DNA from: an uncultured Cytophagia bacterium
GTDB taxonomy: Bacteria; Zhuqueibacterota; Zhuqueibacteria; Thermofontimicrobiales; Thiofontviventaceae
Length of the DNA: 64,000 bases
Assembly (NCBI GenBank): GCA_964498785.1
Contig: CAZCJL010000021.1
Coordinates: forward strand, 2,818 to 66,817
Direction: 5' to 3'
In this document: positions 23,492-37,522 of the stretch, one piece after another
How positions within the stretch are numbered: the first letter of the stretch is position 1
How the letters are laid out: the number at the start of each line of letters is the position of its first letter
The notes under the pieces: model-generated
What the model saw: the letters and a program-made list of their open reading frames with translations, nothing else
Databases searched by the model: none
Told to the model about the DNA's origin: nothing
Translations under genes and position numbers: made by a program

Positions 23492-24110
23492 TTTGATTTA
23501 TGTGCCAATCGTTCATACAGAAGCAGATTTGGGTACTCTTGCCAAATCGTTCAAAAATGAATATACGAAAAAATATTCAAGGCAGCGTTATGAAAACCAT
23601 GTTCAGACTATTCAGAGAATGTGGGATGAAATTAGTGTTTCATTATTAAAGATGGATCTGGAATGGCACAAAATACGGATATATCAGGATGGCCTTCCGG
23701 TATGTGGAAAAGAAGCTGAAATTGTCACAGAATTAGCCGCGCAGGGAAGCCGAAATCATCAATTAGTATTATTACTGATTGAAAAAGGTGCTCATTTAGA
23801 GGGAACTGAAGACAAAAAATTGCTATTAGAGGAATATCAGCATTATCAGAATATTTTTAATGCCAAAAGTCCTGTTATAAAAAACAGGTTGCTACACAAT
23901 TATCAAAAGAAAAGCGAGAAATTGTTGTACCAGCGGGATCAATTTGTTGCGAAACAAATTACAAACACACTGCGAGCGGGTGAAACCGCAATCCTGTTTA
24001 TGGGAATGCTCCATCATGTTGAACAATTTCTTGATAAAAAGATTCGTATTCAATACCTGATCCGCAGGCTTCCGTTGCATAAAAATGCTCGGTTAACAAC
24101 TGTCGAGTAA
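23484..24110 (+). CDS. Hypothetical protein of unknown family, translationally coupled to the receiver gene
   Basis: 208 aa with an 8-nt overlap with the receiver gene. I recognised no motif. It is the last gene of the plus-strand gvp block. Confidence 0.4.
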   Translation: MPDLIYVPIVHTEADLGTLAKSFKNEYTKKYSRQRYENHVQTIQRMWDEISVSLLKMDLEWHKIRIYQDGLPVCGKEAEIVTELAAQGSRNHQLVLLLIEKGAHLEGTEDKKLLLEEYQHYQNIFNAKSPVIKNRLLHNYQKKSEKLLYQRDQFVAKQITNTLRAGETAILFMGMLHHVEQFLDKKIRIQYLIRRLPLHKNARLTTVE

Positions 24111-24112
24111 AA

Positions 24113-24556
24113 TTATGGTTCAGTTTTTCTTTTCTGAAACGCTTTGTTTAAGATAATCTGAGTGGCTTCGGGAATATCGATAGATATTAATTCGTCATGC
24201 GAAAACCATCTGGCGTCTTTAGCGTCTGTATCAGCAGAAAGTTCACCATTTAGATAGATCGCCTCATAATCGACTAAAATATAGTGATATTGCACAGTTC
24301 CATTTTCATCTTTCAGAATCAAATCCAAGACGTCAATCACCTCGCCAATAGTTACTTTGATATTACATTCTTCCATAATTTCGCGTGCACAGGCTTTTTT
24401 TAGTTCTTCGCCAAGTTCAACAAGGCCGCCAGGCAAAGCCCAGAGACCAGCGCTTGGATCTTTACTTCGCTGGATTAATAATACTTTCTCGTTTTTATTG
24501 AATACAACGGCGCCAACGCCAACCATCGGATAGTCCGGATATGCGCGTCCTTTCAT
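24113..24556 (-). CDS. NUDIX hydrolase
   Basis: The Nudix box GGLVELGEELKKACAREIMEECNI matches GX5EX7REUXEEXGU. Confidence 0.85.
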   Translation of the reverse strand: MKGRAYPDYPMVGVGAVVFNKNEKVLLIQRSKDPSAGLWALPGGLVELGEELKKACAREIMEECNIKVTIGEVIDVLDLILKDENGTVQYHYILVDYEAIYLNGELSADTDAKDARWFSHDELISIDIPEATQIILNKAFQKRKTEP

Positions 24557-31066: not shown

Positions 31067-31378
31067 TTATGATTCCAGAGGTTGCTTTAATACTTCTTTT
31101 AGTAACTTACCTGCTTTGAAATGCGTTTTTCTCCGCGCCGGAACATAAATTATTTCACCGGTTTTAGGATTGCGGGCTTTAGGCTTTGGTTTTGTTGTTT
31201 TTACTTCAAATACACCAAAATCCCGAATTTCTATCCGCACTTCAGGATCAGCTTCTGCCATAAATTCACGCAGAGTGGTAAAAACGCCATCAACGATTTT
31301 TTCTGTAACATAAATTTTTTCACCGACCAACTTTGCTGTTCGTTTTGAGACATCTTTCTTGGTTATGGTTTGTTTCAT
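31067..31378 (-). CDS. HU/IHF-family DNA-binding protein
   Basis: 103 aa. …IRDFGVFEVKTTKPKPKARNPKTGEIIYVPARRKTHFKAGKLLKE… has the HU/IHF arm motif. Confidence 0.8.
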   Translation of the reverse strand: MKQTITKKDVSKRTAKLVGEKIYVTEKIVDGVFTTLREFMAEADPEVRIEIRDFGVFEVKTTKPKPKARNPKTGEIIYVPARRKTHFKAGKLLKEVLKQPLES

Positions 31379-31414: not shown

Positions 31415-33634
31415 TTACTTTTCAGCTTGATTTAATATGCGGTAATTTCCGTCTATCCGTTGAACACTGATGACTCCTTTTATTTTGCGAACCCGGTTCA
31501 TGATGCGGTTGAGATGGTTTAAATTTAAAACTTCTATTACCATGACATTGCTTGCCAGTGTGTCCTGAGTTTTCAAATCCATGCTTACAATATTTGTGTT
31601 CATCGATATGAGTGAGTCTGTAATATCACGCAAAAATACTCGGTTGTTTTCGGCAATCACATTAATTTTTGCCACAAATTTTTTGCTGTTATTAACCGCC
31701 CATTGCACGTCAATGTTTCTGTCTTCCTCTTCTAACAGTTTTGGTACATTTTTACAATCAGTACGATGGATAACAACGCCGCGTCCTTTTGTAATAAAAC
31801 CAATTATCCGGTCACCTGGAAGTGGTTGACAGCATTTTCCGAAGTTAATGAGTAAATTATCCAACCCCTGTACTTTGACTGTATTATCAATACCCCAGGC
31901 TAATTTGATAAAACGCTTCAGAAAGGAATCAATTTTGTCCGACTGAATGTTATCCGGGGCAATTTTATGTACAATTCTGGTCGGCGTTAAATCTCCTCGT
32001 CCTATGGCTGCATAAAACTTTGCAGCATCATTATAATTAAACTCTTTCGCAATCTGTTTAATTTCATCATTTTTTAACGATATATTAAATTTTATCAGTG
32101 TTTTATTTAATAGTTCTTCTCCCAATTTGCTGCTTTGCGCAAATTGTGTTTCTTTAATCCACCGCTTTATCTTATTTTTTGCTTTATTTGTTTTGACAAA
32201 TTTCAACCAGTCTTGATTTGGATGCTGATTGTTAGATGTAATAATTTCCACCATATCACCATTTTTAAGGCAGTGGTTTAACGGAACCATTTTACCATTC
32301 ACCTTCGCTCCGATGCAATGAAAACCAACATCCGTGTGAATATGAAAAGCAAAATCAATCGGTGTGGAATCATTCTCTAATTGCCAAAGATCATGATCTG
32401 GTGAAAATACAAAAATCTCATTTTGAAATAAATCATCGATTTTTAAGCTCTGGATAAATTTATCCGGGTCCTTTGCATCATCAAAAATTTTCTGTCGTAG
32501 CTGAATTAGCTTTTCTTCAACTTCATCTAATCGTTTCCGGCCTTCTTTGTAGAGCCAATGTGCCGCGATTCCGGTTTCTGCTTCGTCATTCATTTTTTCG
32601 GTTCGAATTTGAACCTCAACCACCTTTTGATTTTCATGGCCATTTGAATTCGGTGTATAAATAACTTTTGCATGGATAGATTGATATCCATTTTCTCGCG
32701 GGTTTTGGATATAATCAGAATAAAGCTCATGTACAGGTACAAATTCATTCTGAACCACAGATAATGCCGCGTAACAATCTTTAAAACGGTCATGTAAAAG
32801 GCCGTCTTTAACAATAATTCGTATTGCTAAAATATCATTTATTTTATCAAATGAGTAACCGCGGTTAATCATTTTTTTATGAATCGAATAAATGCTTTTG
32901 GAACGACCATGCACTTTACATATAATACCGGCCTTGCTTAACCCCTGCTTAACAATTGAAACAATCTGATCAATATGGGTCTCTCGCACTTCCCGGCTTT
33001 CTGCCAGCCGGGTTCTAATATTTTCATACGTTTCAGGTTCAAGGAACTTAAAAGAAAGATCTTCAAGCTCCTGTTTGATTTTTGAAATCCCGAGACGATG
33101 GGCAAGAGGCACGTAAATTGCCATTGCTTTCTCGCCAACATCTTTTATTAGTTTTGAATTTCGCTTTTCTAACGTAGCGTTGATTGCTCGCATATAGATC
33201 AAACGATCAGCAAGTTTAATAATTATCACCCGAATGTCCCGTGCGATTGATAGCACAAGCTTCCTGAGTTTGTCGGTCTGTTTTATATGTTTATTCCGAA
33301 AATGTAATTCACTAATCTGGTAAAGACCAACGACAAGATCATAAATATTTTTTCCAAATTTTTCTTTAATAACCTGTTTATCTGTCTCAGTATCAATCGT
33401 GATGGCGTGCAAGAAACCACCGATCACTGTTTCATAATCCATTCTGAGTTCAATAAGTATGTCTACAACCTTAAGACAATGCTCAAAATAAGGTTCACCG
33501 GAAATATATAATTGATCCTTGTGGGTGTTATAACTAAATTCAAACGCCTGTTTTATTAAATCTTCATTAACGTTATTGCTGTATTGTTTAATTCTGCTGA
33601 CTATCTCGGCAAATTGTTTACGATATTTTTCCAT
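31415..33634 (-). CDS. relA: RelA/SpoT-homolog (RSH) paralog 1 with degenerate hydrolase HD motif and intact synthetase motifs (RelA-like)
   Basis: 739 aa. The HD region reads …SGEPYFEHCLKVVDILIEL…FLHAITIDTETD… (HD replaced by HA) and RLIYMRA replaces RLHNMRT. The synthetase core is intact: HGRSKSIYSIHKKM…DILAIRIIV…YQSIHAKV…VEVQIRTEKMNDEAETGIAAHW. TGS and ACT-like C-terminal domains are present. Confidence 0.85.
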   Translation of the reverse strand: MEKYRKQFAEIVSRIKQYSNNVNEDLIKQAFEFSYNTHKDQLYISGEPYFEHCLKVVDILIELRMDYETVIGGFLHAITIDTETDKQVIKEKFGKNIYDLVVGLYQISELHFRNKHIKQTDKLRKLVLSIARDIRVIIIKLADRLIYMRAINATLEKRNSKLIKDVGEKAMAIYVPLAHRLGISKIKQELEDLSFKFLEPETYENIRTRLAESREVRETHIDQIVSIVKQGLSKAGIICKVHGRSKSIYSIHKKMINRGYSFDKINDILAIRIIVKDGLLHDRFKDCYAALSVVQNEFVPVHELYSDYIQNPRENGYQSIHAKVIYTPNSNGHENQKVVEVQIRTEKMNDEAETGIAAHWLYKEGRKRLDEVEEKLIQLRQKIFDDAKDPDKFIQSLKIDDLFQNEIFVFSPDHDLWQLENDSTPIDFAFHIHTDVGFHCIGAKVNGKMVPLNHCLKNGDMVEIITSNNQHPNQDWLKFVKTNKAKNKIKRWIKETQFAQSSKLGEELLNKTLIKFNISLKNDEIKQIAKEFNYNDAAKFYAAIGRGDLTPTRIVHKIAPDNIQSDKIDSFLKRFIKLAWGIDNTVKVQGLDNLLINFGKCCQPLPGDRIIGFITKGRGVVIHRTDCKNVPKLLEEEDRNIDVQWAVNNSKKFVAKINVIAENNRVFLRDITDSLISMNTNIVSMDLKTQDTLASNVMVIEVLNLNHLNRIMNRVRKIKGVISVQRIDGNYRILNQAEK

Positions 33635-33731
33635 CAGGCTCTTGGTAAATTCTATGATGCTTGCTTTTATTTACAGTACATAAACTATATATTTTTTATT
33701 AAATAATCAAGCTAAAAATAATAAAAATAAA

Positions 33732-35945
33732 TTAATATACCTCTGTTTCCGATTTAATGTCACCGTTCAATCTCTCAACACTTATCATACCATCAATATT
33801 TCGTATTTTATTGATAGCGCGCGTTAATTGATTAAGATTTTTCACTTCAATGACCAGCGTATTATGAATAAAAGCTCCTTCGGTATTTAAGATCATCCGG
33901 ATAATATTTGTTTGAATAGATGCAGTTGACTCAGATATGTCTTTTAAAAAGTTAGGGCGATTGTCGGCAAAAACTTTTAGTTTTACTAAAAATTGCCTGT
34001 CTTTATCCACATCCCATTCAACATGAACCTTTTTTTCCGGGTGTTGAAGTAAATAGCTGATTCGTGTGCAATCACAACGATGGATTTCTATGCCCCGTCC
34101 CCTGGACATAAATCCGAGTATTCGATCTCCGGGAATCGGCTGACAGCAATCTCCAAAAGCGATTAAAAAATTATTTTCCCCTTGAATTCTGATCCCATTT
34201 TTAGATGTTTTCGGATGTTTTGAAGATTTGCCATTATTTTTTTTATTCGATTTATCTGAATGTTGTTCTGGTGAAATTTTTTCCAGAACCTCTTTCACGT
34301 TTAGTTCTGCTTTACCGAGCGCGATATGTAATTGATTGATATCATCTAAGCCATAAGATTGGGCAATTCCTGTAAGATTTAAATCTTGTTCGGAAATATT
34401 TATTTTGTTAAGTTCGATACTTAATAAATCTTTACCGAGTTGTAAGCTCTGTTCGAATATAGCATCCTTAACCCAGCGTTTTATTTTGCTTTTTGCTTTT
34501 GAGGTTTTGATAAACTTCAGCCATTCTGGATTTGGTTGTGCTTTGTTAGATGTCAAAATTTCAACAACATCGCCGTTTTTTAATTGATAATTTAGCGGAA
34601 CGATTTTGCGATTTGTTTTAGCCCCGATGCAATGGTAGCCAACATCAGTATGAACACTAAATGCAAAGTCTACTGCCGTCGATTCGCGCGGCAGGCGGTG
34701 AAGATCTCCATTTGGGGTAAAAACAAAGACTTCATCACGAAAAAGGTCGTTCTTGAGATTTTCCATAAAATCACCAGAATCTTTTGACTCTTGCTGCCAT
34801 TCTAAAATCCGCCTTAGCCAGGCATACTGTTGCTCTATTTCAGATTTATTGATTTTACCTTTGTTTGTGATCCAGTGAAAGGCAATTCCGTTTTCTGCAC
34901 GCAAATCCATGTTTTGAGTACGGATTTGTATGTCCGTCATTTTCCCGTTTGGCCCGATAACAGTTGTATGAAGTGACTGATACAGATTTGATTTTGGTGT
35001 TGCAATATAATCTTTAAAATGATCATGAACCGGCGTGAATAAATTGTGCACCACTCCTAAAACAAAATAACATTGTTCGACTTTGTCTACCAAAATTTTT
35101 ACTGTGAAAGCATCGGTGATCTCCTCGAATGGCAGGTCTCGATATTTCATTTTTTCATATATTTTGAATAAGTTTTTTATTTCACAGAGAATATTAACAT
35201 TTGTAATATCAATTTTTTTAAGATCATTTTTTATCTGTGCACTGATTTTAGCGACATATTGTTCACGCGATGGGGAATCGTCAGAGATTTTCTTTTCGAT
35301 GAAGTCATATTTTTTAGGATGTAATGTTTTAAATACACGATCTTCTAATTCAGATACAATTTTGGTGATACCCAGTCGGTGGGCCAGCGGAGCATAGACA
35401 TCCATGGTTTCCGCTGCGATTCGTTTGCGTTTACGGGAAGGCAAATAGTCGAGAGTGCGCATATTATGTAGTCTGTCTGCAAATTTGATCAGAATTACCC
35501 GAATATCCTTAACCATGGAAATAATCATTTTACGAAAATTTTCCGCCTGCTTTGTTTCAAAGTTTTCGAAATTAATACCACCGATTTTTGTAACACCGTC
35601 GACCAGTAGTGCAATTTCTTCGCCGAATAAATCTTCAACCTCTTCAATTGTTACACCGGAATCCTCTGCAACATCGTGGAGTAGGGCGCTGCATATTGTC
35701 GCGGTATCCATTTGATAATCCGTCAAAATCATAGAGACAGCCAACGGATGTTCAAAAAATGGTTTTCCCGAACTTCGTAATTGATCTTGATGAGCTTTAT
35801 AGGAAAAATTGTAGGCTTTACGAATAAGTTCGACATCTAAAGCATCGTTATAGCGCCGAATTTTTTCGATAAGTTCATTAAATATTTTTATATATTTATT
35901 GTCCATACCAATGTAAATAAAAAAGTGAGAAACAATGGTTCTCAT
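33732..35945 (-). CDS. spoT: RelA/SpoT-homolog paralog 2 with intact HD hydrolase motifs and degenerate synthetase G-R-x-K motif (SpoT-like)
   Basis: 737 aa; the true start is possibly MDNKYIKIF at about 35906. The HD region is intact (…SGKPFFEHPLAVSMIL…LLHDVAEDS…RLHNMRTL). The synthetase region LCEIKNLFKIYEKM…DAFTVKILV lacks the canonical GRxK…DxxAxRII, though YQSLHTTV…IQIRTQNMDLRAENGIAFHW is retained. Confidence 0.85.
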   Translation of the reverse strand: MRTIVSHFFIYIGMDNKYIKIFNELIEKIRRYNDALDVELIRKAYNFSYKAHQDQLRSSGKPFFEHPLAVSMILTDYQMDTATICSALLHDVAEDSGVTIEEVEDLFGEEIALLVDGVTKIGGINFENFETKQAENFRKMIISMVKDIRVILIKFADRLHNMRTLDYLPSRKRKRIAAETMDVYAPLAHRLGITKIVSELEDRVFKTLHPKKYDFIEKKISDDSPSREQYVAKISAQIKNDLKKIDITNVNILCEIKNLFKIYEKMKYRDLPFEEITDAFTVKILVDKVEQCYFVLGVVHNLFTPVHDHFKDYIATPKSNLYQSLHTTVIGPNGKMTDIQIRTQNMDLRAENGIAFHWITNKGKINKSEIEQQYAWLRRILEWQQESKDSGDFMENLKNDLFRDEVFVFTPNGDLHRLPRESTAVDFAFSVHTDVGYHCIGAKTNRKIVPLNYQLKNGDVVEILTSNKAQPNPEWLKFIKTSKAKSKIKRWVKDAIFEQSLQLGKDLLSIELNKINISEQDLNLTGIAQSYGLDDINQLHIALGKAELNVKEVLEKISPEQHSDKSNKKNNGKSSKHPKTSKNGIRIQGENNFLIAFGDCCQPIPGDRILGFMSRGRGIEIHRCDCTRISYLLQHPEKKVHVEWDVDKDRQFLVKLKVFADNRPNFLKDISESTASIQTNIIRMILNTEGAFIHNTLVIEVKNLNQLTRAINKIRNIDGMISVERLNGDIKSETEVY

Positions 35946-36124: not shown

Positions 36125-37522
36125 TCAAAAAGGAGACTTTGATTTCACAGATTCGACTTCACCGTAATACTCTGTATCCTGGCGCGGCGATAGATCTTCA
36201 AAACTAACAAATTCGTGTTTGAATACCAGTTCCACAGTTCCAATAGGGCCATTTCGTTGTTTACCGATAATAATTTCGGCGATATTTTCTCGTTCTGGCT
36301 CAACAATTCCATAAGCAGCCGGCCGGTAAATAAATAGAACCACATCTGCATCCTGTTCGATTGCGCCGGATTCTCGTAAATCTGAAAGTTGTGGCCGTTT
36401 GTCACCGCCTCGTGATTCAACAGCTCTGGATAACTGGCTCAAAGCCACTACCGGCACATCCAATTCTTTTGCAAGTGCTTTTAGCGACTGAGAAATTTCG
36501 GAAATTTCTTGCTGACGACTATCTGCTCTTTTAGGCCCGCGGATAAGCTGCAAATAGTCAATAACTAACATTTTAACATCTTTCTCATATTTTAAGCGCC
36601 TGGACTTGGCTTTTATTTCCAAAATACTTTGAGCGGGTGTATCATCCACATAAATCGGCGCTTCTGCTAATTGTCCCACTGCAAGGCTCAAATTTGACCA
36701 GAGATTTGGGGGTAATTTACCTGTTCGCACAAGATGTGAATCAACTTTCGCTTCTGCACAGAGCATACGCATGGCTAATTGATACGAAGCCATTTCCAGA
36801 CTAACAATCCCCACACCTGCATTATGCTTCACTGCTGCATTTCGTGCGATATTAAGACAAAACGCTGTTTTACCCATAGAGGGTCTGCCAGCCACGATGA
36901 TTAAATCCGAATTCTGAAAACCGGATGTCAATTCATCTAACCTGGAAAATCCGGTGGATACACCGGTGACGCCACCTTTTGTATGGTGATATAATTCAAT
37001 TTTCTCAAATGTATCTTGCAAAATAGGGTAGATAGAAGCAAACCCTTTTCTCAACCGTCGCTCAGAAAGAGTAAATATTTCTTTTTCTGCGCTATCCACC
37101 AGATCGTGTACATCGTGTGTTGATTCATAGCAACGAGTTGCAATACTCGTGGAAACGCTTAATAATTTTCGAAGCAGTGATTTTTCCAATACAATTTTAG
37201 CGTGGTATTCGACGTTTGCTGCAGAAGGTACTTTTTCTGCCAACTGAATCAAGTAATAATTACCGCCAACTGCTTCCAGATCGCCCGATTTTTGTAATTT
37301 ATCTGCCAACGTAATCACGTCTACTGGCTGCCGTTCTTCATATAAATTGTACGCTGCTTTAAATATTTTTTGATGTGCTGTTCGATAGAAAGCAGATTCA
37401 TCTAAAATTTCGACTGCTTTGCCCACAGCTTCATTTTCGATAAACATTGCTCCTAATACAGCCATCTCTGCATCAATATCCTGTGGCGGAATTCTATCTG
37501 TTTTTGGTTCACTTTTTGACAT
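36125..37522 (-). CDS. dnaB: Replicative DNA helicase
   Basis: 465 aa with an N-terminal DnaB domain (PQDIDAEMAVLGAMF), Walker A (GRPSMGKTAF) and the RecA-like H3/H4 motifs of DnaB. Confidence 0.9.
   Translation of the reverse strand: MSKSEPKTDRIPPQDIDAEMAVLGAMFIENEAVGKAVEILDESAFYRTAHQKIFKAAYNLYEERQPVDVITLADKLQKSGDLEAVGGNYYLIQLAEKVPSAANVEYHAKIVLEKSLLRKLLSVSTSIATRCYESTHDVHDLVDSAEKEIFTLSERRLRKGFASIYPILQDTFEKIELYHHTKGGVTGVSTGFSRLDELTSGFQNSDLIIVAGRPSMGKTAFCLNIARNAAVKHNAGVGIVSLEMASYQLAMRMLCAEAKVDSHLVRTGKLPPNLWSNLSLAVGQLAEAPIYVDDTPAQSILEIKAKSRRLKYEKDVKMLVIDYLQLIRGPKRADSRQQEISEISQSLKALAKELDVPVVALSQLSRAVESRGGDKRPQLSDLRESGAIEQDADVVLFIYRPAAYGIVEPERENIAEIIIGKQRNGPIGTVELVFKHEFVSFEDLSPRQDTEYYGEVESVKSKSPF

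Follow-up and report, generated by a model that had tools for sequence, protein, structure and literature searches.

Two adjacent long RelA/SpoT homolog (RSH) genes, named here RSH2 and RSH1, lie on the minus strand of a 64-kb stretch of DNA from an uncultured bacterium of the phylum Zhuqueibacterota (GenBank assembly GCA_964498785.1, contig CAZCJL010000021.1, positions 2,818 to 66,817; the whole stretch is referred to below as the window). It is probable, from the catalytic residues that each copy has kept or lost, that the two proteins form a split pair in which RSH1 only makes and RSH2 only destroys (p)ppGpp, a subfunctionalisation of the RelA[hS]/SpoT[Hs] type with an origin of its own. 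We infer these enzymatic consequences from residue states, by analogy with the G251E, H77A/D78A and E324V mutants discussed below.

The split between RelA and SpoT is the textbook example of subfunctionalisation of an enzyme with two activities. To our knowledge, the Moraxellaceae are so far the only group in which the two activities have been documented as fully divided between a pure synthetase and a pure hydrolase. The present pair would be a convergent case in a distant, uncultured phylum, with the equivalent residues struck: the G251 glycine and the ATP-binding arginines in the synthetase, and the HD aspartate and the ED glutamate in the hydrolase. That an independent instance strikes equivalent residues suggests that the mutational routes to monofunctionality are few. 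Moreover, the unsplit gene is still present at this locus in close relatives, and the hydrolase copy has been lost from others; biochemical and structural comparisons could thus draw on natural proteins of the lineage that represent “before”, “after” and “after loss” as a matched set. The main puzzle is posed by the lineages in which the hydrolase-dead RSH1 stands alone at the locus.

Reciprocal changes in the two catalytic domains

RSH2 and RSH1 are intact open reading frames (ORFs) arranged head-to-tail, of which RSH2 is transcribed first. The initial annotation of this DNA had described two long-RSH genes of about 738 amino acids separated by 97 bp, and the ORFs and their spacer bear this out (Table 1). 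All five Pfam domains (HD_4, RelA_SpoT, TGS, AH-RIS and ACT) are found in each product, and scores of 621.7 bits (RSH1) and 724.9 bits (RSH2) against the RelA/SpoT subfamily model TIGR00691, with a cut-off of 499.2 bits, identify both as long RSHs. Both also match full-length Rel and RelA structures in the PDB, with E-values from 1e-126 to 1e-167. The score for HD_4 is 123 bits in RSH1 versus 159 bits in RSH2. No further RSH, small alarmone synthetase (SAS) or small alarmone hydrolase (SAH) gene was found within the window.

Catalytic residues were compared in a MAFFT alignment of RSH1, RSH2, Bacillus subtilis Rel (its sequence taken from the PDB alignment), RelA and SpoT of Escherichia coli MG1655, and 224 database homologs, with residues numbered according to B. 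subtilis Rel. The motif register that the initial annotation had assigned by eye proved correct, and with it the claim that the downstream copy is broken in its hydrolase motifs and keeps those of the synthetase, while the upstream copy keeps its hydrolase (HD) domain and is altered in the synthetase (SYNTH) motif.

The HD domain of RSH1 carries the changes R44Y, K45I, D78A, E81I, H147I, N148Y and T151A, and retains H53, H77, D82 and D144. Its synthetase core, composed of G240, R241, K243, K251, D264, R269, N306, Y308, H312, E324 and Q326, is unchanged. Alanine 77 of RSH1 occupies the column of B. subtilis D78 and SpoT D73; the H77A/D78A variant of B. subtilis Rel is hydrolase-inactive, and its E324V variant is synthetase-inactive (PMC7098656). 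Without D78, E81 and N148, RSH1 lacks the complete HD domain of a bifunctional Rel [HS], and its sequence is that of the RelA[hS] type, in which a pseudo-HD domain accompanies a SYNTH domain and a ribosome-sensing C-terminal region that are both intact. Each copy retains the CCxP/HRxDC zinc-finger motifs as well as the TGS histidine that corresponds to H432 of RelA.

The changes in RSH2 are the reciprocal of these. The 12 HD positions compared are canonical save K45S and Y50F, and the SYNTH domain carries G240C, R241E, S247K, A267T, R269K, R295H, E324D, A342F, Y346T and K347N. Cysteine 254 of RSH2 falls in the column of G251 of E. coli RelA, and the G251E variant serves as the standard RelA without catalytic activity (PMC6719525). 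Without G240, R241, R269 and E324, RSH2 lacks the complete SYNTH domain of a bifunctional Rel, and by sequence it belongs to the SpoT[Hs] type as defined previously, in which the HD core is intact, SYNTH-critical residues are lost and a pseudo-SYNTH domain is retained (PMC9974481).

These states are shared by the orthologs of each copy. RSH1 orthologs comprise 12 full-length clusters, which are 58-100% identical to RSH1, and one partial (P0013), and among the 224 homologs a broken HD core occurs only in the 12 full-length ones, where D78 and E81 are lost in 12/12 and the SYNTH core is kept in 12/12. Likewise, a broken SYNTH core is confined among these homologs to the RSH2 orthologs P0121-P0124, bar a single partial sequence that has G240S. 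The fifth ortholog of RSH2, the upstream gene of locus L096 (NCBI metagenome-assembled genome GCA_016931935.1), adjoins P0008 and combines a perfect HD domain with G240D, R241S, R269K, Y346G and K347S. The HD core is thus kept in all five RSH2 orthologs, while G240 is replaced by C, C, W, Y and D, and R269 by K, K, L, L and K. Because the replaced positions are shared and the replacing residues differ between orthologs, these varied replacements bear the signature of released constraint on the SYNTH domain. As the split pattern is fixed in 12 RSH1 clusters and five RSH2 orthologs and is not seen in the approximately 208 other homologs, again bar the G240S partial, it is not, to judge from these sequences, a product of chance.

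Constraint was also assessed at 140 near-invariant columns, those with at least 97% invariance across 224 canonical long RSHs. Changes in RSH2 affect 2/52 of these columns in HD, 10/42 in SYNTH (Fisher p = 0.005 versus HD) and 2/45 in the C-terminal region, and the corresponding counts for RSH1 are 14/52, 8/42 and 2/45; 43 of the 45 C-terminal columns are kept in each copy. None of the eight SYNTH changes of RSH1 falls in the catalytic core, and they are fixed throughout its orthologs; its HD changes remove catalytic residues. Identity within each clade is reciprocal in the same sense, being lower in HD (0.61) than in SYNTH (0.73) for RSH1 and higher in HD (0.76) than in SYNTH (0.63) for RSH2, with values of 0.84 and 0.82, respectively, for canonical relatives.

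Several observations weigh against so clean a division. RSH1 is itself altered at 8/42 near-invariant SYNTH columns, and the asymmetry between its HD and SYNTH domains is not significant by raw count (14/52 vs 8/42, p = 0.46). RSH2, in turn, retains K243, K251, D264, N306, Y308, H312 and Q326 in its SYNTH domain, its E324D replacement is conservative, and its ortholog P0123 keeps E324 and has R241K; RSH2 may therefore hold a weak, SpoT-like synthetase activity. Subfunctionalisation would then be partial: RSH2, like E. coli SpoT, would be a bifunctional enzyme that hydrolyses strongly and synthesises weakly, and the pair would represent the common RelA/SpoT[HS] state. The SYNTH domain is also closer to that of B. 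subtilis Rel in RSH2 (125 bits) than in RSH1 (89 bits). However, G240 has given way to a bulky or charged residue in 5/5 RSH2 orthologs, and the equivalent G251E replacement kills RelA. R241, A267, R269, Y346 and K347 are altered too, by residues that vary between lineages in the manner of lost constraint, whereas E. coli SpoT retains every one of these residues. A partial split is on this evidence unlikely, and the division of both activities between RSH1 and RSH2 is preferred.

In the public databases, the RSH1 and RSH2 proteins are both named bifunctional (p)ppGpp synthetase/hydrolase. The RSH1 orthologs MBN2012743.1 and MBN1154033.1 at NCBI, for example, are annotated as [quoted passage not shown] despite their lost hydrolase residues, and MBD3287755.1 is an ortholog of RSH2. 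The label “bifunctional” is probably wrong for both proteins.

The locus among relatives and the origin of the pair

Named close homologs belong to candidate division KSB1 (Candidatus Zhuqueibacterota of the FCB group at NCBI), and the RSH genes occupy a conserved housekeeping block, yicC-remA-gmk-rpoZ-coaBC-udg-dnaB-[RSH]-HU-lnt. A single canonical Rel stands at this locus in L092-L095, which constitute the nearest sister lineage (group S), and in the more distant L008, L009, L010 (Caldithrix) and L030 (KSB1). The tandem RSH2-RSH1 arrangement is found in four lineages, represented by the window (also L003/L004), L005, L091 (where the contig end cuts RSH1) and L096, and RSH1 stands alone in L090, L006/L007/L097, L088 and L089. 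Outside these relatives, a second copy within 8 kb was found at 0/80 other long-RSH loci from diverse phyla. These control loci were drawn from a GTDB genome scan with the RSH1 alignment, in which the matches listed were generic Rel genes; no RSH1 ortholog was among the matches listed. A metagenome scan with a degenerate DNA pattern specific to RSH1 yielded a single locus, L097. The spacer between dnaB and RSH1 in L006 recurs base for base within the corresponding L097 spacer, and the two loci are therefore probably from the same species. The start of the single Rel or of RSH2 in relatives ranges from overlapping dnaB to at most 72 nt after it; for RSH2, the distance to dnaB is 9-72 nt in the relatives and 179-218 nt in the window.

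The history of the locus was traced with a tree of the flanking proteins (CoaBC, UDG, DnaB and HU; 300 bootstraps). The RSH1-bearing genomes form one clade (299/300) that is sister to group S, itself monophyletic in 300/300. Within the former, the RSH1-only clade L006/L088/L089 (300/300) is sister to a group composed of the four tandem lineages and the RSH1-only L090 (221/300). Because the RSH1-only genomes fall in two places of this tree, the locus has lost RSH2 on at least two occasions, once in the lineage of L090 and once in the clade of L006, L088 and L089. A tblastn search of the RSH1-only spacers for RSH2 remnants gave nothing significant, and no RSH2-like protein from RSH1-only relatives was present among the 120 best RSH2 homologs. 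The L090 spacer (L090:5877-5925) keeps GGTATATTAA, which equals the last codons and stop of RSH2 in the window (33725-33741), within a mini-ORF of seven codons (ATG AAA AAT TTA TTG GTA TAT TAA). The mini-ORF may be a deletion scar, although the match is short.

Both copies fall among Rel proteins of the KSB1/Calditrichota type. The consensus of RSH1 comes closest to group S Rel (0.586) and, among the references, is least like E. coli RelA (0.341). Since RelA is the most distant reference and both copies score below the RelA and SpoT equivalog cut-offs given below, the RSH1/RSH2 split is independent of that in the Proteobacteria. The initial annotation had spoken of a “recent or independent” event. 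Its second term holds; the first does not, because RSH1 and RSH2 are only 41% identical over their full length and the split state is common to lineages whose orthologs are only 52-70% identical, and by this measure of divergence the split is old.

In the RSH tree, RSH1 and RSH2 each form a clade with 100% support, and RSH2 has group S Rel as its sister in 96/100 replicates. The suggestion of a tandem duplication accords with adjacency and synteny, but the trees do not join the copies, and this, too, must be set against the proposed reading. RSH1 and RSH2 were monophyletic in 0/100 replicates, and in a bootstrapped four-cluster test the topology that unites them won 7/200 times with full-length sequences and 22/200 times with the C-terminal half. 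A tree of clade consensuses places RSH1 next to (RSH2,S) with only about 35% support. All of these trees were built by neighbour-joining on corrected p-distances and not by model-based maximum likelihood, and RSH1 was poorly resolved whether all sequences, clade consensuses or a gamma correction were used. Counts of shared derived residues identified three sites on the stem of RSH2 and group S, too few to place RSH1, and RSH1 shares 0/19 RSH2-specific states. A further reservation is that the locus contains RSH1 but no RSH2 in several relatives, such that the pair is not obligatory.

As RSH1 and RSH2 are never sisters, either the duplication took place before, or at the same time as, the divergence from the sister lineage with a single Rel, or RSH1 has its origin elsewhere. 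We read RSH2 as descended, by position and by phylogeny, from the resident Rel, and RSH1 as a copy added within the KSB1 neighbourhood at about the time of the split from group S or earlier, and which then evolved fast. Duplication in place is the most economical origin that we infer from adjacency and synteny, and is not demonstrated by the trees. Alternatively, RSH1 could have been acquired horizontally from a related lineage of the FCB group and inserted beside Rel, after which the resident gene shed its synthetase. Besides the failure of the copies to pair in the trees, such a transfer would account for the element upstream of RSH1 that has no counterpart before RSH2 or canonical Rel, and for three insertions specific to the RSH1 clade, both of which are described below. 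Nevertheless, the consensus of RSH1 is nearest to the Rel of the immediate sister lineage, quartets join RSH1 to this lineage over more distant ones, and the two genes are directly adjacent in the same orientation inside a conserved housekeeping locus. In addition, no donor clade with a similarly degenerate HD domain is present among the 224 homologs, and no mobile-element genes flank the pair. Horizontal acquisition thus appears rather improbable, and duplication within the lineage followed by division of the two activities is favoured.

Distinctive features of RSH1 and a conserved upstream element

Three insertions are conserved in 12/12 RSH1 orthologs, one of four residues after the degenerate HNMR motif and two of 6-7 residues each in the SYNTH domain, and none of the three was found in RSH2, canonical Rel, RelA or SpoT in the alignment. 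The RXKD motif is usually tied to bifunctional enzymes. At this position (RFKD), RSH1 reads LYSD and its orthologs LY(S/T/A/N)D. The otherwise canonical Rel proteins of group S (P0125-P0148 and relatives) read RFDD, SFND, RFND, KFND or KFSD there. RSH1 might on these grounds have been neofunctionalised, toward another product such as pGpp or (p)ppApp, another substrate preference or another signal. The substrate-selectivity motif is neither RXKD nor the EXDD of RelA, eight near-invariant SYNTH positions have changed and are fixed in 12/12 orthologs (H286Q, F296Y, A301Q, K304R, T313A, G320N and others), and two of the conserved insertions lie in SYNTH and one in the pseudo-HD domain. Yet the known residues for binding of ATP, Mg2+ and guanine are all present in RSH1, including Y308, and the C-terminal sensing domains are conserved. 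A new function for RSH1 is accordingly viewed as improbable beside its retention as a (p)ppGpp synthetase.

That either copy is a functionless, decaying remnant heading for loss is scarcely credible: although RSH2 has gone from the locus at least two times and its branch is long, both ORFs are intact across at least four lineages that have diverged to 52-70% protein identity, each copy has a non-degenerate catalytic domain and C-terminal domains that are clearly constrained, and toxicity would be expected of a synthetase that has no hydrolase beside it, the spoT-null state being lethal in relA+ E. coli.

A non-coding element of 39 nt precedes RSH1 in every RSH1-bearing locus (L003-L007, L088-L091, L096, L097 and the window), with at most two mismatches and whether or not RSH2 is present. 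Its distance from the RSH1 start is 38-45 nt across loci, and it was found nowhere else in the 97 loci, including the regions upstream of RSH2 and of canonical Rel. The window contains one match, with 0 expected by chance. Within the element, eight lineages share CTTGATTATT without any change, although identity among their RSH1 proteins is only 58-70%; the element is far better conserved than the surrounding proteins, and the leader between it and RSH1 is not conserved. Its TTG-20 nt-TAnnTT layout fits the -33/-7 promoter type of Bacteroidota, and the element is probably either an RSH1 promoter of this type or the binding site of a regulator. Scans around the pair for consensus sigma-70 promoters and for terminators gave results at chance level. 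As no terminator-like site was found in the RSH2-RSH1 spacer, read-through from RSH2 into RSH1 is also possible. The predicted RNA fold of the spacer is no better than that of shuffled sequences (z = +1.25), and no Rfam match was found in the window. In the RSH1-only clade (L006, L088, L089 and L097), a second spacer motif, GTTGAAATTTnTTGnAAATTA, lies approximately 130-160 nt upstream of RSH1 and before the 39-nt element.

Together, these features are consistent with a mechanism in which a resident bifunctional Rel between dnaB and HU became, in one KSB1 sublineage, two adjacent genes that divide the ancestral functions. RSH1 would act as the stringent-factor synthetase, sensing deacylated tRNA on stalled ribosomes through its TGS, ZFD and ACT domains, and its pseudo-HD domain, which has lost the metal-binding D78, the catalytic residue E81 and several residues that bind ppGpp, would serve a regulatory role. 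RSH2 would reset the system as its Mn2+-dependent (p)ppGpp hydrolase, with the glycine and the arginines that position ATP lost from its synthetase. The pseudo-SYNTH domain and C-terminal region of RSH2 could function as allosteric or regulatory modules, as described for SpoT of Acinetobacter baumannii (PMC9974481). Transcription of RSH1 would proceed at least partly from its own promoter-like element, and separate promoters would make the ratio of synthetase to hydrolase adjustable, which is impossible for a single bifunctional Rel; the same advantage has been proposed for RelA and SpoT by Atkinson et al. (PMC3153485).

More tentatively, and with some doubt, the locus may preserve a complete series of duplication, degeneration and complementation, from Rel[HS] through the tandem [Hs]+[hS] to [hS] alone after clean deletion of the hydrolase copy. 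Organisms with only RSH1 would then need another way of removing (p)ppGpp, and might rely on an unrelated hydrolase such as an SAH or on a novel route, and the 39-nt element would be a dedicated site that uncouples expression of the synthetase from that of the hydrolase.

The coordinates of these features are collected in Table 1. Because RSH2 orthologs are 715-724 aa long and the alignment of RSH1 with RSH2 begins only at RSH2 residue 17, the true start of RSH2 is probably the ATG at 35906 (M14) rather than the ATG at 35945 that opens the longest ORF; no obvious Shine-Dalgarno sequence precedes either.

Table 1. Positions in the window of the RSH pair, its domains, the upstream element and the adjoining genes
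Feature	Position	Strand	Description
RSH2 ORF	33732-35945	-	737 aa; upstream copy; predicted (p)ppGpp hydrolase with degenerate synthetase, [Hs]
RSH2 HD domain	35367-35816	-	Residues 44-193; Pfam HD_4 7e-47; core H66, H90, D91, E94, D95, D157 and N161 intact
RSH2 pseudo-SYNTH	34869-35180	-	Residues 256-359 by Pfam; altered motif just before, C254/E255 at 35181-35186
RSH2-RSH1 spacer	33635-33731	-	97 bp, AT-rich
39-nt element, TTTTTAGCTTGATTATTTAATAAAAAATATATAGTTTAT (TTTTTAnCTTGATTATTnnnnAAAAAATnnnTAGnTTAT)	33680-33718	-	Non-coding, 45 nt before RSH1 ATG; putative RSH1-specific promoter
RSH1 ORF	31415-33634	-	739 aa; downstream copy; predicted (p)ppGpp synthetase with dead pseudo-hydrolase domain, [hS]
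RSH1 pseudo-HD	33086-33547	-	Residues 30-183; altered: Y43, I44, A77, I80, I146, Y147, A150
RSH1 SYNTH	32537-32908	-	Residues 243-366; core catalytic residues all kept; two clade-specific insertions
RSH1 insertions	~33173-33184, 32792-32809, 32636-32656		Residues ~151-154, 276-281, 327-333; conserved, 12 orthologs
dnaB	36125-37522	-	Conserved upstream neighbour, anchors locus
HU/IHF-type DNA-binding protein gene	31067-31378	-	Conserved downstream neighbour

The pair lies inside a long minus-strand gene block (24.5-53.6 kb) that converges with a plus-strand block (6-24 kb), and where the two meet, at about 24 kb (24100-24550), both the GC skew and the AT skew change sign. With regard to the neighbouring genes, ruvX lies between HU and lnt in the group S loci L092, L093, L094 and L095, and is absent from that position in RSH1-bearing loci. 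In L005, L006 and L088-L096, gmk and rpoZ are situated upstream of the Rel locus with coaBC-udg-dnaB between (presumably at about 39.4-41.5 kb in the window), a placement in the FCB group that recalls the gmk-rpoZ-spoT order of E. coli (L002).

Comparison with known systems

Lineage-specific duplicates of Rel have been described as RshA, RshB, RshC and RshD (Atkinson et al. 2011, PMC3153485), and are described there neither as tandem nor as having a synthetase-dead partner. RshB, which is known only from Bacteroides, Porphyromonas and Parabacteroides and nests in Bacteroidetes Rel, has an HD domain with divergence “similar to that for RelA” (PMC3153485). It resembles RSH1 in being a second, more divergent long RSH nested in the Rel of one lineage of the FCB group, but RSH1 lies near Rel of the KSB1/Calditrichota type and, on indirect evidence, is probably not an RshB. 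No Bacteroidia-like or other HD-degenerate sequence occurs among the 120 best RSH1 homologs, and no other HD-degenerate protein among the 224. A literature search found no paper that combines KSB1 and ppGpp.

With E. coli RelA and SpoT[HS], the pair shares descent as paralogous long RSHs from Rel, one copy with an inactive HD domain, and in both E. coli and the KSB1 locus gmk-rpoZ lies upstream of the hydrolase-competent copy. RSH1 and RSH2 are nevertheless not members of the RelA or SpoT families, scoring 463 and 484 bits, respectively, against the RelA equivalog NF008124 (cut-off 728 bits) and 502 and 620 bits against the SpoT equivalog NF008303 (cut-off 947 bits). RelA's pseudo-HD domain is much more eroded than that of RSH1, where H53, H77, D82 and D144 are kept, the EXDD motif of RelA is absent from RSH1, which has LYSD instead, and the three clade-specific insertions of RSH1 are a further difference from both proteins. 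The tuning of interdomain loop lengths described for RelA and SpoT (PMC9974481) is not evident as a shift in this pair, as the lengths of alpha6-alpha7, Core and HEL-ZFD equal those of canonical Rel.

The closest analogue is provided by RelA[hS] and SpoT[Hs] of the Moraxellaceae, such as A. baumannii (SpoT, PDB 7QPR), in which the partition is complete and the pseudo-domains and C-terminal regions are kept (PMC3153485, PMC9974481). The arginines that coordinate ATP and guanosine are changed in this SpoT, R249 to K and R277 to E in Thermus thermophilus numbering (PMC9974481), and they would appear to be the same two arginines as those affected by R241E and R269K in RSH2. The Moraxellaceae belong to the Proteobacteria and have dispersed genes, whereas the KSB1 pair belongs to the FCB group, is of independent origin and has its genes side by side. 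The parallel with RelA and SpoT that the initial annotation had drawn therefore stands as regards reciprocal loss, but the likeness is nearer to the complete split of the Moraxellaceae than to the arrangement in E. coli, whose SpoT retains every synthetase residue, as RSH2 does not.

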